Shown: positions 24,117 through 48,184, counted from the first letter of the stretch. The stretch: 64,000 nucleotides of DNA from Candidatus Paceibacter sp. (GCA_014237915.1 JABACC010000006.1:9510-73509), one strand, 5' to 3'. The notes: generated from the sequence alone by a model not told the origin. Numbers and translations are program-made.

Positions 24117-24332
<216 letters not shown>

Positions 24333-24511
24333 TAAGAAAGGAGGTGAAAATATCTTCCTGCTACTTAGCAGGTCGTATTTTTAAAAAGCGCACTGGGGGA
24401 TGCGCTTTTTTTACTATTTTTATTTTTTAGATTTTTAGAGAAAAATTTTAAAATGAGTGTGGGCGCCCGAAGGGCGCCCACAAAAATTTTAAAAATTTTC
24501 TAAAGTCTTTG

Positions 24512-24584
24512 TCCGTCTGGAAGGATTCGAACCTTCGACCGTCAGCTTAAAAGGCTGCTGCTCTACCAACTGAGCTACAGACGG
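24512..24584 (-). tRNA. tRNA-Lys (anticodon UUU)
   Basis: Reverse complement folds with acceptor ccgtctg/cagacgg, D arm gctc/gagc, anticodon loop cTTTtaa on stem cagc/gctg, T arm gaagg-ttcgaat-ccttc. Confidence 0.7.
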
Positions 24585-25916: not shown

Positions 25917-26038
25917 AATCAGAGACTAAATTTTGGAGAAAAAAAATGATGCTTTGCATCATTTTTTTTCTCCAAAATTTAGTCTCTGATTTATTTTTTT
26001 GTTATAATTTAAAAATGTTAAAAAATGAAGATAAGAAA

Positions 26039-27397: not shown

Positions 27398-27581
27398 ATT
27401 TTTAAAAGTTTGGAAATTTTTAAATTTTTTTAAAAAATAATAAATAAACATTGGAAAATAAAATGGCGGAAAAAGCTTCGCTTTTTCCGCCCTCAAATTT
27501 TAAAATTTTTTTTTTCAATTTTAAAATTTTTTGGTGGATTTTGCCTCCGGCAAAATCCACTAAAACCCCCCAGATATTTTA

Positions 27582-27610
27582 TTGACTTTTAAATAAATTT
27601 ATGTTAATAT
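27582..27610 (+). promoter_or_regulatory. near-consensus sigma70-type promoter (TTGACT - 17 nt - TAATAT)
   Basis: Read directly. Followed by a 5' stem-loop taccttgagaa-atag-ttctcaaggta, an AGGAG SD and ATG 27672. Confidence 0.5.
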
Positions 27611-27671
27611 CAGTTACCTTGAGAAATAGTTCTCAAGGTAAAATAAAATTTTCTTTGAAAGGAGAAAAAAA

Positions 27672-28112
27672 ATGGAAAACGTTAGACAAGAAAAAAGGCT
27701 GACAGAACAACCAGTATTTAAAATTTTTGCAATACAAGTGTTAGCTGGAGGAATAACTTTTTTGGCTACAGGAAGCCTAGAATCTAGCTTAAACTACATC
27801 TTCTACTCCGGCCTCGTCTTCGGCACCTTCCTCGGCACCCACTTCTCCAACTCCACCAGCTCCACCAAATACACCGTCTTATCCGCCCTCGCCGCCGCCT
27901 TCGCCGCCTCCGTCGCCGCCTACGTCGCCCTCGCCAAATCCACCATCTTCGCCGTCATCTTCGCCGTCTTATCCGCCCTCGCCGCCGCCTTCGCCGCCAA
28001 GGAAAAAGATGGTAAATTAACTTTCTGGGGTTTTTTTGAGCAACTTCCTTTGGGAATATTTTTCATCCCTCATGCAATTGAGAGTTGTCTTGCCAAGAGA
28101 AAAAAAAAATAA
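27672..28112 (+). CDS. small Ala-rich multi-TM membrane protein containing an about 210-bp block of NNC-only codons
   Basis: 146 aa. Codons 27801..28004 are almost all NNC: Ala GCC, Leu CTC, Val GTC, Gly GGC, Thr ACC, Ser TCC/AGC, Phe TTC, Ile ATC, Tyr TAC. An exact 33-nt internal repeat ttatccgccctcgccgccgccttcgccgcc appears twice. The ORF edges are normal AT-rich sequence. Confidence 0.45.
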   Translation: MENVRQEKRLTEQPVFKIFAIQVLAGGITFLATGSLESSLNYIFYSGLVFGTFLGTHFSNSTSSTKYTVLSALAAAFAASVAAYVALAKSTIFAVIFAVLSALAAAFAAKEKDGKLTFWGFFEQLPLGIFFIPHAIESCLAKRKKK

Positions 28113-28635
28113 TAAAAAAAATATAATGTTCTTTTAGCGGGCCCCGCAAGGGCCCGCCAAAACACTCACACCTGTGAGTGTTTTTTATTAATTTTTTATT
28201 TTATAAAATTTTTTTTGGCGGATTTACCGAAGGCAAATCCGCCAAAAAATTTTAATAACAAGTTATCAAATTTTTTTATAAAAAAATATTGACTTTGTCT
28301 TCTAAATAAATATAATGGCTTCCACTTGTTTTTTTTATTTTTTTTATTTTGTAGTTTAAAAAATAAAAAGCAGGTTTGAACTTTGAAAATTAAATAGTCT
28401 TTTCAATCTCTAGAAAAATTTTTTAAATTTTTTTAGGGAAACAAAAGCAGGTAAAATTAAATTTTTACTGAACGAATACAAACTCAAACAAACAAACAAA
28501 CTCGTGTTTTTAAGATTTTTTTTAGAAAAAAATCTAGGTTTTTAAAACTCATAAAAACCGACCCAGAAAATTACTTTTTAAATTTTTTTAAAATTTAAAA
28601 AGTAAAAATTATATCTTTGAAATTTTCTAATGAAA

Positions 28636-31945
<3,310 letters not shown>

Positions 31946-32054
31946 TTTTCATTAGGAAATTTTAAGGATATAATTTTGTATTTTATTTTACAGAAAGTTA
32001 ATTCCTGTTTTTGAAAAGACTATTTAATTTTTAAGGTTATTAAAAATATTTTAT

Positions 32055-32160
32055 TCTGGTGCTTTGTCGGAGGGGTAACACCTGTTTCCATTCCGAACAC
32101 AGAAGTTAAGACCTCTAGAGCCGATGGTACTGCCTTGCGGGAGAGTAGGCAGGCGCCGGA
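32055..32160 (+). rRNA. rrf: 5S ribosomal RNA
   Basis: ccattccgaacacagaagttaag...gccgatggtactg...gagagtaggcaggcgcc. The ends pair with each other. Confidence 0.85.
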
Positions 32161-32273
32161 ATAAAGTATTTTTTTTTGTTTAAAATTTTTTTTTAAAAAA
32201 TTTTAAAACAAATTTTTAAAAAAATTTGTTTTTCTTTTTTAAAAATATATAATATAAAAATATTTAAAATTTT

Positions 32274-44287: not shown

Positions 44288-44617
44288 ATGACAAGATCAA
44301 TTAAAAAAGGGCCATATGTTTACGAGAGACTTCTAAAAAAAATAGAAGGCAAAAAGCCTGAAGACATTAAACCTATAAAAACTTGGGCAAGAGCCAGTCA
44401 AATTCACCCCGATATGGTAGGTTTTACTTTTTTAGTACATAACGGAAAAGATTTTATTTCTGTTTTTGTAACAGAAGATATGGTAGGTCATAGGTTGGGA
44501 GAATTTTCTCATACAAAAACTTTCTATAGACACGGAGGTAAAATCCAAAAAGAATTAGATCAAAAAAAGAAAGAAACTGAAATAGCTGCAGCAAAGGCAG
44601 CAAAAGCAAATGCTTAA
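44288..44617 (+). CDS. rpsS: 30S ribosomal protein S19
   Basis: '[11 protein letters not shown]...[42 protein letters not shown]'. Confidence 0.9.
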
Positions 44618-44631
44618 AATAAATTAAAATT

Positions 44632-45063
44632 ATGGAGGTAAAAGCACAAGTAAAAAATTTAAGATCAACGCCTAGAAAAACAAGGCTTGTTATTGATCTT
44701 GTTCGTGGAAAAAACTTAAAAAAAGCAATTTCTGAGTTAAAATTTGTTAATAAAAAAGCATCTTCTTTAGTTTCCTCTCTTTTAAATTCTGCAAAAGCAA
44801 ACGCTGAAAATAATTTTTCTCTTGATTCTGAAAAATTGTATATTAAAACAATTCAAGCAAACGAAGGAAAAAAAATGAAAAGATACAGAGCTGGATCAAA
44901 AGGTTCCGCAAGACCGATAAAAAGAAGACTTTCAGATATTTCTGTAGTTTTAGCTACAGAAGAAGAAATTAAATCAGAAGAAAAAAAAGTTAAGAAAGTT
45001 TCTAAAAAAGAAGTAGAAAAAACTTCTATTAAAAAAACAGAAACTAAAGAAGATAAAAAATAA
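44632..45063 (+). CDS. rplV: 50S ribosomal protein L22
   Basis: 'MEVKAQVKNLRSTPRKTRLVIDLVRGKNLKKAISELKF'. Basic C-terminal extension. Confidence 0.85.
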   Translation: MEVKAQVKNLRSTPRKTRLVIDLVRGKNLKKAISELKFVNKKASSLVSSLLNSAKANAENNFSLDSEKLYIKTIQANEGKKMKRYRAGSKGSARPIKRRLSDISVVLATEEEIKSEEKKVKKVSKKEVEKTSIKKTETKEDKK

Positions 45064-45065
45064 TT

Positions 45066-45737
45066 ATGACACACACAATAAACCCATATTCACATAGATT
45101 AGGAGTAATTAGAGATTGGAAATCTAAGTGGACTTTTTCTCCAAAAAATTATGCAAAGTATTTAAAAACAGATACTTTTGTTAGAGAATATTTAAATAAA
45201 GAGTTAAGAGGAAAGTATATTTCTTCAATAGATATTGCAAGAAATGGCGATGATAATTATAATATAAACATAAAAACAACAAGAACAGGAATGATTATCG
45301 GAAAAACAGGTGATGGAGTAGAAAAATTAATTTCGGGAATTAAAAAAACTTTAAAAAAAGCAAAAATTCATATTCCTAAAGAAATCAAAATAAATATTGA
45401 AGATGTACATTCAGCAGAATCTGATGCGGCGATTGTCGCTTACTCTGTTGTTGAAGGCCTTGAGAGAAAAATGCCGTTTAGAAGAGTTTTGAAAACTGCT
45501 ATTGAAAAATCAATGGCAAATAAAAATGTTAAAGGTATTAAAATTTTAGTTTCTGGAAGATTGGGCGGCTCAGATATGGCTAGAAAAGAAAGTATAAAAA
45601 AAGGAAGAATTCCACTACAAACTTTCAGAGCAGATATTGATTACAAAGCAGAAAGAGCAAATCTTCCTTATGGAGTAATCGGAGTTAAAGTTTGGATTTA
45701 CAGAGGAGAAATTTTTAACAATAAAAATAAAAAATAA
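45066..45737 (+). CDS. rpsC: 30S ribosomal protein S3
   Basis: KH domain; '[37 protein letters not shown]'. Confidence 0.9.
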
Positions 45738-45745
45738 AAATTATT

Positions 45746-46165
45746 ATGTTGTTTCCTAAAAAAGTAAAATACAGAAAATGGCAAACTGCTCGAAAAAATC
45801 CTGAAAAAAGAGGTGTGGCTACTCGTGGAACAAAAATTTCCATGGGTGAATACGGACTTAAGGCAACAACTCAAGCCAGAGTTACTTCAGCTCAAATTGA
45901 AGCAGCCAGAAAAGCAATTAAAAGATATGCAGGAAAAACAAGTAAGGTTTGGATCAGAGTTTTTCCAGACAGACCAGTAACGAGAAAAGCTGCTGAAGTT
46001 GGAATGGGTAAAGGTAAAGGAGATCCAGATTTTTTTTGTTTTGATGTTGAGCCGGGAAGAATTTTATTTGAAGTCTCAGGAGTTTCAGAAGAGATTGCAA
46101 AAGAAGCTTTAAGAAAAGGAGGAACAAAAATGCCACTTAAAACAAGATTTTCTGTAAAAATTTAG
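45746..46165 (+). CDS. rplP: 50S ribosomal protein L16
   Basis: '[16 protein letters not shown]...[27 protein letters not shown]'. Confidence 0.9.
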
Positions 46166-46225
46166 AAAATATTTTTTAAAAATATTTGTAATAAGACTTA
46201 AAAAATAGTATCATATTAAATCAAA

Positions 46226-46435
46226 ATGAAAAAAGAAGACTTTTCAAAAAATAAAAAAGAAGACTTGGTAAAACAAGCGTCAGATCTTAAAAAAAATTTA
46301 AGAGAAAATAATTTTGATTTATCTGGATCAAAAGAAACTGATAAAAATTTTGCATCAAAAACAAGAAAAAAAATCGCTAGAATTTTAACAGAGCTTAACA
46401 TGAGAGCAAAAAAAGAAAAAGAAACTAAAAAATAA
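46226..46435 (+). CDS. rpmC: 50S ribosomal protein L29
   Basis: Position in operon; '...LKKNLRENNFDLSGSKETDKNFASKTRKKIARILTELNMR'. Confidence 0.7.
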   Translation: MKKEDFSKNKKEDLVKQASDLKKNLRENNFDLSGSKETDKNFASKTRKKIARILTELNMRAKKEKETKK

Positions 46436-46437
46436 AA

Positions 46438-46689
46438 ATGGAAAAAAAGGAAAAACAAAAAAATATAAAAAAATTAAAAGGTATTGTTGTTTCAGACAAA
46501 ATGAAAGATACTGCTGTTGTTTTAGTTTCCAGATATGTTAAAAATTCTAAATATCAAAAATTTCAAAAAACTTCAAAAAAGTTTAAAGCTCACGATAAAG
46601 GAAATACAGCAAAAGTAGGAGATGAAGTTTTTTTAACAGAAACTAAACCAATTTCTAAAACTAAAAAATTTAAATTAATTACTGCTTAA
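46438..46689 (+). CDS. rpsQ: 30S ribosomal protein S17
   Basis: 'KGIVVSDKMKDTAVVLVSRYVKNSKYQKFQKTSKKFKAHD...GDEV'. Confidence 0.85.
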   Translation: MEKKEKQKNIKKLKGIVVSDKMKDTAVVLVSRYVKNSKYQKFQKTSKKFKAHDKGNTAKVGDEVFLTETKPISKTKKFKLITA

Positions 46690-46711
46690 AATTTTCCATT
46701 AAAAAAATATT

Positions 46712-47083
46712 ATGATTCAGCCACAAACAATAGTTAAAGTAACAGATAATTCAGGAGCTATAACAGCTAGAGTTTTTAAAGTTCTTGGAGGTTCAAAGAG
46801 AAGATATGCAAGAATTGGTGATCTTGTTGTTATGGCGGTTCAAACAGCACAACCAAGAAAACAAGTTAAGAAAAAAGACGTTGTGCGAGGAATAGTTGTT
46901 AGACAAAAAAAACCATTCAGAAGAGCAGACGGATCTTATATTTATTTTGATGAAAACTCTGTAGTAGTAGTTGAAAAAGAAAAAAAAGAACCTGTAGCTG
47001 GTAGAATTTTTGGGCCAATCCCAAGAGAGGTTGGAGAAGCTGGTTATCAAAAAATCGCCTCATTAGCACCAGAAGTTGTTTAA
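46712..47083 (+). CDS. rplN: 50S ribosomal protein L14
   Basis: 'MIQPQTIVKVTDNSGAITARVFKVLGGSKRRYARIGDLVVMAV'. Confidence 0.9.
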   Translation: MIQPQTIVKVTDNSGAITARVFKVLGGSKRRYARIGDLVVMAVQTAQPRKQVKKKDVVRGIVVRQKKPFRRADGSYIYFDENSVVVVEKEKKEPVAGRIFGPIPREVGEAGYQKIASLAPEVV

Positions 47084-47089
47084 AATATT

Positions 47090-47395
47090 ATGAAATTAAA
47101 AAAAGGAGACAATATAATAGTTCTTGCAGGAAAAGACAAAGGAAAAAAAGGACAAATAATTAAAATTTTACCAAAAGAAAATAAGGCTGTTGTTGATGGT
47201 GTAAATATTTCAAAAAAACACAAAAAAGGTTTTGGTGAAAACAAAGGAGAAGTTTTAGAAATAGCAATGCCGATAGATATTTCGAATCTTTCTTTTTTTG
47301 ATGAAGATAAAAAAAGTCCAAGTAGAATCGGATATAAAACAGAAGGAGAAAAAAAAGTTAGAATTTCTAAAAAATCTGCAAAAGTTTTAAAATAA
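47090..47395 (+). CDS. rplX: 50S ribosomal protein L24
   Basis: KOW motif 'MKLKKGDNIIVLAGKDKGKKGQIIKI'. Confidence 0.85.
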   Translation: MKLKKGDNIIVLAGKDKGKKGQIIKILPKENKAVVDGVNISKKHKKGFGENKGEVLEIAMPIDISNLSFFDEDKKSPSRIGYKTEGEKKVRISKKSAKVLK

Positions 47396-47402
47396 AAATA
47401 TT

Positions 47403-47951
47403 ATGGAAAGAGTTAGAGAAAAAGAAAAAAAAGCATTTGAAAAATTAAAAGAAGTTTTTTCTTACAAAAACAAAATGCAATCTCCAAAAATAGAAAAAAT
47501 TGTTGTTTCTGTGGGGGTGGGAAAAATAAGAGCTGAAAAAGAAAAAATGCAAATAATCGAAGATAGGCTTGCAAAAATCACAGGTCAAAAACCAGCTGTT
47601 GTTCCTGCTAAAAAATCAGTTGCTACTTTTAAAGTAAGAGAAGGCGACACCTCAGGATATAAAGTTACTTTAAGAGGCCCAAATATGTATGCTTTTTTAG
47701 ATAAATTTTTAGTAGCTTCTCTCCCAAGAACAAAAGATTTTAGAGGAATAAATACAAGCGCTGTTGACGAAATGGGAAATTTAACAATCGGAATTCCAGA
47801 ACACATAATTTTTCCAGAAACCACAGACGAAGAGCTTAGAAATGTTTTCGGACTTTCCGTTTGCATAGTTTCATCTGCAAAAAATAAAAAAGAGGCACAT
47901 GAATTTTTTAAATTTATTGGAATTCCATTTAAAAAAGAAAAAAAAGATTAA
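47403..47951 (+). CDS. rplE: 50S ribosomal protein L5
   Basis: '[12 protein letters not shown]...[24 protein letters not shown]...[18 protein letters not shown]'. Confidence 0.9.
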
Positions 47952-47971
47952 AATTTTATTTAATAAAAAAT

Positions 47972-48184
47972 ATGAAAAAAGAAATTCACCCAAAATTTAA
48001 TAAAAACACAAAAACAATTTGCTCTTGCGGAGAAGTTTATGAAGTTGGATCCACTTTAGAAAACGAAGTTAAAATAGAAGTTTGCCCTGCTTGCCACCCT
48101 TTTTATACTGGAAATAATAAAGTTTTAGATACAGCTGGAAGAGTAGATAAATTTAAAAAAAGAGTTCAAGCTTCAAAAAAATAA
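47972..48184 (+). CDS. rpmE: 50S ribosomal protein L31, sitting where S14 normally follows L5
   Basis: 'MKKEIHPKF...[48 protein letters not shown]' matches L31 (MKKDIHPKY...CSCGN...CSKCHPFFTGKQ...GGRVDRFNKRF). Followed by the terminator 48214..48240. Confidence 0.8.

Follow-up and report, generated by a model that had tools for sequence, protein, structure and literature searches.

Why should some 200 nt within a small membrane-protein gene of an AT-rich bacterium end almost every codon in C? This question is raised by a 64,000-nt stretch of DNA from Candidatus Paceibacter sp. (GCA_014237915.1, JABACC010000006.1:9510-73509; referred to as the window), in which an open reading frame (ORF) for 146 amino acids, upstream of the 23S rRNA gene, contains a block of NNC codons (referred to as the C-phased block). 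The window, with a GC content of 29%, is part of an 87-kb contig (ENA ERZ23487945, BUSC20-1_SAMN14422900_METAG-scaffold_112; a copy exists at NCBI) from a metagenome-assembled genome of Patescibacteria (Parcubacteria/Paceibacteria-like); the organism is recorded from one sample only, and these 87 kb are the portion of the genome at hand. Related loci were represented by a set of 80 GlyRS loci from GTDB Patescibacteria (915 kb in total), the best relatives showing 71% identity in GlyRS. C3 denotes the fraction of codons ending in C, with a window baseline taken from 34 long ORFs; frame 0 is the frame of the ORF, and +1 is one base rightwards. The pattern itself is real and statistically extreme, and why C is kept at third positions is only partly explained: the answer that we tentatively prefer, at somewhat less than an even chance, is that the block represents a phase-locked low-complexity segment of recent origin or acquisition, in which C was inherited and not chosen. 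The block and its parts are as follows.

27792-27998, plus strand: C-phased block, 69 codons (41-109 of the ORF), 207 nt, with 65 NNC, two AAA, and two TTA codons
27792-27875, plus strand: part 1 of the block, non-repetitive, with AT-rich codon positions 1 and 2 (NYIFYSGLVFGTFLGTHFSNSTSSTKYT)
27876-27998, plus strand: part 2 of the block, GCC-rich, with a period of ~12 nt (A-h-A-A units); (SPPP)-like in the +1 frame, and (GGGE)-like with two TAA in antisense
27874-27908, plus strand: exact 35-nt repeat, copy 1
27964-27998, plus strand: exact 35-nt repeat, copy 2, 90 nt downstream of copy 1

The four codons other than NNC were AAA (K66 and K89) and TTA (L70 and L100), and G or T was found at none of the third positions. 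With the C3 of 8.4% in the 34 long ORFs as background, 65 or more C-ending codons out of the 67 for which C is possible had a probability of 1e-62, and the next-best 69-codon window contained 15 C-ending codons at most. A six-phase scan of the window, the rest of the contig, and the related loci detected no comparable C-phased block, confirming the strict NNC block of the original prediction as unique in this set. Its limits required revision: 64 C-ending codons among 68 had been claimed for 27801-28004, and the count with those limits was 62/68. Likewise, the statement that only Lys and Leu codons depart from NNC, with no G-ending codon, holds up to 27998; an AAG at 27999 and a GAA lie within the limits originally given. 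The high GC content was borne out (66% vs 29%), with a GC skew of -0.53 and a composition of A27 C103 G31 T46 (50% C and 15% G). Codons of four-fold families ended in C in 46 of 46 cases and G-ending codons were never used, in agreement with the earlier remark that the block differs from ordinary high-GC codon usage. The repeat, previously described as 33 nt from a quoted string of 30 nt, was 35 nt with a spacing of 90 nt; arrays with periods of 9, 12, and 21 were found in the block by TRF. The edges of the block were sharp, yet the 5' edge was gradual in that AT-rich positions 1 and 2 coexisted with C3. The transcript of the block would be rich in C over G (ratio, 3.3), with 68 YC dinucleotides, and its predicted fold was unstructured relative to shuffled sequences (z = +1.0). 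In frame 0, the block encodes ~69 Ala/Phe/Val/Ser-rich residues, corresponding to two to three extra predicted helices, among which Glu, Gln, Met, and Trp were absent; the tryptic peptides predicted from this frame include STIFAVIFAVLSALAAAFAAK.

The ORF that carries the block, together with its signals, consists of the following features.

27672-28112, plus strand: ORF, 146 amino acids, orphan, with five predicted helices; the only complete ORF is in frame 0
27582-27610, plus strand: sigma-70-type promoter, TTGACT, 17-nt spacer, TAATAT, with a preceding TG (9/12 match)
27614-27641, plus strand: hairpin in the 5' untranslated region (UTR), perfect 12 bp; predicted folding energy of the leader 27606-27675, -20.2 kcal/mol (z = -5.2)
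27649-27668, plus strand: small hairpin, UUUUCUUU paired with the region of the Shine-Dalgarno (SD) sequence
27660-27664, plus strand: SD sequence AGGAG, 7 nt ahead of ATG
28137-28184, plus strand: two tandem hairpins past the stop codon (z = -6.9), the first (28137-28157) GC-rich and the second (28159-28184) followed by a T-run
28211-28249, no strand assigned: bidirectional terminator-like hairpin of the GGATTT...AAATCC family, with a sister copy at 27530-27565, upstream of the ORF

Both flanks of the block scored as native coding sequence in frame 0: 12.1 bits for codons 1-40 and 7.2 bits for codons 110-146 (37 codons). Real genes gave 16.7 +/- 7.0 bits per 40 codons; off-frame windows stayed below 7.2 bits in all 1084 cases. 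The third positions of the flanks (A35 T24 G11 C7) followed the native A/T-ending usage, as originally noted for the ends of the ORF, and the promoter, 5' hairpin, and SD sequence of the earlier description were all recovered. These expression signals look strong, and the strong expression previously claimed is a prediction from them. Helices in the product were predicted (AF2, single sequence) at residues 14-33, 36-58, 63-88, 91-112, and 118-144, with a predicted local distance difference test (pLDDT) score of 57; this model says nothing on the reading frame. Judged from sequence, the ORF therefore appears to be a genuine, homologue-less small membrane-protein gene.

No relative of the product was found. 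A search of 5.8e9 clustered proteins returned only the protein itself, and one of 1.84e9 representatives returned itself and two low-complexity matches; a back-translated pattern scan of metagenome contigs gave no match to the ORF. For DUF420 (Pfam PF04238), the ORF reached 16.6 bits (E = 0.01), below the gathering threshold of 30.5, and NCBIfam contained no relevant match to the protein. The tail (LPLG...KRKKK) was considered as a possible C-terminal sorting signal, for sortase or of another type, but this idea found no support in NCBIfam and was dropped. In Rfam, nothing reached threshold between 27380 and 28660; the best relevant model was freshwater-2, which aligned to the 5' UTR (27597-27674, plus strand) at a sub-threshold 25.3 bits (gathering, 49.9; E = 0.23).

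The original prediction had also proposed comparing homologous loci upstream of the 23S rRNA gene in relatives; none of the 80 GlyRS loci possessed a 23S gene downstream, a homologue of the ORF, or a C-phased block. The 23S gene starts at 28632 and has a promoter of its own (28289-28316; 11/12 consensus), which shares TTGACT and the TAAATAAAT spacer motif with that of the ORF (family D15). Three hairpins, two of which score as intrinsic-terminator-like, lie 3' of the ORF stop codon. The ORF is thus a transcription unit separate from the 23S gene, since it has its own promoter and is followed by these hairpins, and the 23S gene is served by its own promoter. The position of the ORF beside the 23S gene has no demonstrated meaning, and no connection of the C phase with this gene was detectable.

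Not considered in the original prediction were the other frames of the block. Because C is present at each third base, the block contains no stop codon in any of the three sense frames, and two runs of A lie at its edges:

27793-28017, plus strand: +1 frame, open for 75 codons, no start codon; TAA at 27790-27792 and 28018-28020
27788-28012, plus strand: +2 frame, open
27791-27793, plus strand: A3 run at the 5' edge; removal of one A would join the N-terminal native flank to the P/S/T reading (hypothetical)
28003-28007, plus strand: A5 run at the 3' edge; addition of one A would rejoin the P/S/T reading to the C-terminal native flank (hypothetical)

The +1 frame reads TTSSTPASSSAPSSAPTSPTPPAPPNTPSYPPSPPPSPPPSPPTSPSPNPPSSPSSSPSYPPSPPPSPP, in which 94% of the residues are Pro, Ser, Thr, or Ala (the exceptions being two Asn and two Tyr); NCN codons account for 65 of 69 between 27793 and 27999, and part 2 contains an SPPPSPPPSPP motif. 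Part 1 in this frame corresponds to TTSSTPASSSAPSSAPTSPTPPAPPNTP, with mostly native A/T wobble bases, and it scored as native coding: +12 bits over 28 codons (in-frame mean, 16.7 per 40), compared with -16 bits in frame 0 and +23 bits in antisense. The antisense strand of the block encodes a Gly/Glu/Asp repeat (GGEGGGEGG...) with two TAA stops inside. The mutual information between codon positions was significant for both phase assignments and did not discriminate between them. When both A-run edits were made, a continuous ORF of 146 amino acids resulted, with the order native transmembrane (TM) segment, P/S/T spacer, and native TM segment ending in KRKKK; this was a test of possibility only.

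DNA of this kind, which had also been overlooked, was found elsewhere in nature in all three phases. A 24-mer of the block was present in 28 GC-rich metagenome contigs, several of which contained C-phased blocks of 200-650 codons; the long ORF of these contigs (up to 3628 codons) has C at codon position 2 and encodes (SPPP)n. In an annotated gene of a Hymenobacter plasmid, the opposite strand of such DNA encodes (GGGE)n, with the phased base at codon position 1. For codon position 3, consecutive NNC codons in frame numbered 68 in gp110 of mycobacteriophage LittleE and 48 in Dallas, flanked by sequences ~99% identical between the two phages, and the probability of an all-C run given local codon usage was 1e-20.6. 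These blocks indicate that phase-3 blocks are real in finished genomes and turn over rapidly. Homologues of gp110 in Cheoctovirus carry a 12-nt (A-A-x-S)n repeat at the equivalent place, showing that the phages genuinely use the Ala-rich frame; x in this tandem repeat is hypervariable (W, G, R, E, or K). The central block of the gp110 family in Omegavirus is itself hypervariable, with 29-68 consecutive NNC codons rich in Ala, Asn, and Tyr, and differs in length between phages with flanks of ~99% identity. The loci of the gp110 family, for both phage groups together, were L117, 463-1236; L118, L119, and L120, 520-1233; L124, 701-1423; and L121-L123.

The closest likeness was to the gp110 block of Omegavirus (cluster J: LittleE gp110, Dallas gp107, and Superphikiman). 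As in our ORF, a C-ending run lies in frame between ordinary coding flanks of a real gene, one codon is used per amino acid, GCC dominates with a variable residue at each third or fourth position, the +1 frame resembles a Pro/Thr spacer, and the bias far exceeds host codon usage. On the other hand, the phage genome is GC-rich and its major codons end in C, whereas C3 in this host is 8%; the phage block is overtly tandem-repetitive and length-variable, whereas part 1 here is non-repetitive; and the phage block is of a soluble type (Asn/Tyr/Asp), whereas the block here is hydrophobic. The (SPPP)n repeats, which resemble hydroxyproline-rich glycoproteins or extensins (L083, L087, L097, and others), share with our block a strict C phase over hundreds of bases, identities of 24-27 nt with part 2, G-rich wobble positions (~40%) as in the +1 frame, and a 12-nt period. 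They differ in that C occupies position 2 of the long ORF, whereas the intact ORF here has C at position 3, and in that the contigs are eukaryote-looking (56-75% GC), with kinase-like and Cys-rich domains. The search with the block alone, as originally suggested, yielded only compositional matches of this kind (70-77% similarity, found at many positions, and so not homology), together with the C-phased analogues in contigs, a plasmid, and phages. Strict NNC blocks inside real genes therefore have precedent, the unusual element here being the AT-rich host, and the block belongs with triplet-phased low-complexity coding DNA, a known type.

Two further cases bear on such DNA. A protein of the Leisingera thetidis plasmid NZ_CP109790 (WP_264214512; L116, 1308-1853) is annotated as a hypothetical protein, 'AAIAAAVTAAI...', with 159 of 181 codons ending in C; the (GGGD)n frame of the opposite strand is open for 353 codons and continues into the neighbouring annotated gene, and the PGAP call is probably in the wrong frame or strand. 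In our window, a second small orphan ORF (24118-24333, plus strand; 71 amino acids) contains a perfect (GCA)11 poly-Ala microsatellite at 24130-24162, and its architecture is like that of the 146-amino-acid ORF: a TTGCAT-17-TATAAT promoter, a 5' hairpin, and an AGGAGG SD sequence. Since (GCA)11 uses a native Ala codon, triplet slippage operates in this genome.

According to the reading of the block as a young, phase-locked segment, it would have arisen, shifted, or been acquired recently, and AT-biased mutation pressure would not have had time to erode C. Two routes may be envisaged, and they share this reading about equally. In route (a), a spacer rich in Pro, Ser, and Thr, the second codon positions of which carried C, would now be read one base out of register, and single-base changes in the edge A-runs would relink the P/S/T reading to the native flanks. 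In route (b), an Ala-rich low-complexity insert would have been built from, or imported as, C-ending triplets, comparable to phage gp110. A recent foreign insertion, one of the origins raised in the original prediction, is compatible with the data and forms part of this reading, although no donor was found. In frame 0, any C at the periodic sites could change to T without altering the protein, but T occupied 0/65 of these sites in an AT-biased genome; the segment is thus either very young in frame 0, or C is actively kept. The first alternative fits with this absence of T and with the exact 35-nt duplication. Furthermore, NNC is neither the native dialect nor that of high expression, as indicated by a C3 of 8.4% across the genome and of 7.6% in the operon of ribosomal proteins (44288-48184), and an orphan ORF whose block is found nowhere else in the contig or in relatives is expected of a recent lineage-specific event. 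The +1 reading of route (a) needs no exotic selection, because C is the constrained second codon position there.

Route (a) also resembles compensatory frameshifting, in which two cancelling indels enclose a segment in an alternative frame (PMC8935012; PMC8127213). Similarly, a -1 change at A3 and a +1 change at A5 would shift the block to the P/S/T frame and leave the flanks intact. Such segments are usually short, and one of 207 nt is possible only because C-phased sequence is free of stops in any frame.

Several results weigh against a young segment. Neither a donor nor an orthologue was found in pattern scans of viral and metagenome contigs or by blastn against plasmids and phages, and a donor codon dialect among the sampled Patescibacteria was rejected, the best mean P(C3 given amino acid) being 0.42. 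Recency and the route of origin are both what we infer here, the former from the absence of decay only. The one duplication aside, the block did not exceed codon-shuffled controls in repetitiveness: once the second 35-nt copy was removed, codon words recurred no more often than in shuffles (k = 3, p = 0.33), and part 1 was free of them, so that the copying of a few seed triplets cannot account for part 1. CCC, CGC, TGC, and GAC (Pro, Arg, Cys, and Asp) were absent from the block vs 6.5 expected (permutation p = 0.0002), and its Lys codons delimit hydrophobic stretches of 20-21 residues. The missing residues and the Lys spacing look like selection on frame 0, which needs time and therefore counts against route (a) in particular. 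When part 2 is read in +1, CCG occurs 14 times and TCG 12 times, whereas CCG represents 10% of Pro codons and TCG 6% of TCN Ser codons genome-wide. A-runs such as those at the edges are frequent in this genome (0.36 and 0.23 of windows), so their presence says little in favour of route (a). A diversity-generating retroelement was rejected as a source: the repeat pair is exact, mismatches at the 90-nt offset are not A-specific, and no reverse transcriptase domain appears in the gene lists of the contig. No complementarity to the block, and no source for it, was found elsewhere in the window.

The other side of the alternative left by the 65 silent sites, namely that C is actively kept, implies a constraint at the nucleotide level: ~200 nt of the sense strand or its transcript would have to be rich in C, poor in G, and free of structure, and the choice of NNC codons and of amino acids (Ala, Ser, Thr, Phe, Val, and Leu) would have been bent to this need, with the protein still membrane-compatible. 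We regard this as unlikely, but as a serious rival. It would explain why all 46 codons of four-fold families end in C, since pressure simply for GC, or for rare codons, would bring in G as well; it predicts the Lys exception, because Lys has no NNC codon; and it agrees with the lack of Glu, Gln, Met, and Trp, the sharp edges, the non-repetitive part 1 with its native-type amino-acid make-up, the absence of Pro, Arg, Asp, and Cys codons, and the C-rich, YC-rich, unfolded transcript. Rho is the best-known reader of C-rich, G-poor, unstructured RNA, and the block may be rut-like by composition: like a rut site, it would provide more than 80 nt of unstructured RNA with C over G (103 vs 31) and many YC dinucleotides (68). 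Ribosomes lagging on 65 rare codons might expose this loading platform. Another C-binding protein, or a role at the DNA level, is equally possible. Known rut sites are, to our knowledge, neither codon-phased nor so extreme, and no intragenic rut site with a strict phase is known to us. No protein that would read the signal was identified; the annotated genes of the 87-kb contig, a small fraction of the genome, include no Rho domain, and a literature search for Rho in the Candidate Phyla Radiation gave no result. Three hairpins already follow the ORF, and Rho is therefore not needed to protect the 23S gene; two Leu codons are TTA, though CTC was available; and the block occurs only once. The narrower claim that the C phase is maintained as a codon-phased regulatory platform, read by Rho or by a C-specific RNA or DNA binder and of a kind not described so far, strikes us as quite unlikely. 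The original proposal had tied a nucleotide constraint to the rRNA promoter; that link found no support, given the three hairpins and the promoter of the 23S gene, and only the constraint itself was retained. The G-quadruplex or structured antisense element suggested at the same time did not hold either: no G3+ motif was present on the other strand of the block, and a structured-RNA reading was ruled out by the fold z score and the absence of an Rfam match.

Two further explanations were judged less favourably. The block may be an artefact, with two 1-nt errors in A-runs flanking a genuine in-frame P/S/T spacer, or, as raised in the original prediction, a chimera, here by a join with GC-rich DNA of the (SPPP)n type from another organism in the sample; we consider this improbable. 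In its favour, only one sample underlies the genome. In the independent Logan assembly of SRR11455651, this region is broken up (the contig stops at window position 25945, and the flanks are found in no Logan gene product), and the scaffold as deposited in ENA contains a gap of 100 N 3 kb upstream of the ORF. The A-run edits restore a continuous TM-P/S/T spacer-TM protein, and 24-27-mers of part 2 are in common with eukaryote-like contigs. Against this, a short-read consensus is unlikely to contain, within a single gene, two homopolymer errors of opposite sign (A3 and A5), other Logan contigs are identical (100%) to the window, and six hypothetical variant products had no exact match in a collection of 15 billion proteins. 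A chimera would call for a pair of joins within one gene of 441 nt, returning to the adjacent base with the flanks staying in one frame; moreover, part 1 is not foreign-like in the GC-rich sense, the 5' edge is gradual, and the similarity to (SPPP)n contigs is compositional. Translational tuning was largely refuted and is very improbable; it would mean either that a highly expressed gene has been codon-optimised to an extreme degree, or that rare codons are clustered to delay ribosomes while the protein enters the membrane. In its favour are the apparently strong expression signals, the rarity of all 65 NNC codons in this genome, and the predicted membrane helices that the region encodes. Optimisation was nevertheless ruled out by the C3 of 7.6% in ribosomal-protein genes, where NNC/(NNC+NNT) was 0.04-0.31 in 11 of 12 codon pairs (His, 0.48); NNC is not preferred there, and strong expression thus does not explain the bias. 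G-ending codons are equally rare (G3, 9.9%) and yet unused, so that rarity fails to predict C only.

If the block is indeed a young phase-locked segment, it would represent a clean natural case of stop-free, triplet-periodic DNA captured in any frame. Such DNA may encode a spacer rich in Pro, a helix rich in Ala, or a linker of Gly and acidic residues, and its capture could generate new membrane-protein sequence in a tiny, fast-evolving genome. Should C instead be under active maintenance, we would have here an unusually clear nucleotide-level signal that overrides both codon and amino-acid usage. C-phased DNA also calls for caution with gene callers, the PGAP call for the Leisingera protein being apparently in the wrong frame.

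Some minor observations concern the surroundings of the ORF. The ENA gap corresponds to window positions 24553-24578, inside a tRNA-Lys gene (24511-24584), where the window shows a 26-nt overlapping join that may be a product of scaffolding. The terminator-like hairpin family, GGATTTTGCC-loop-GGCAAAATCC, has 8 copies in the window vs 0.2 expected, located at gene ends (12148, 14047, 14933, 17751, 19602, 24735, 27536, and 28220); two of them flank the ORF. A 16S gene was not found in the 64-kb window, indicating that the rRNA genes are unlinked; a 5S gene follows the 23S gene (region 28632-32161). The 23S gene (28632-31952) is 3321 nt long vs 2925 nt in the model, and insertions are probable. 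An ankyrin-repeat protein gene is also present on the contig (window 8746-9249, minus strand).

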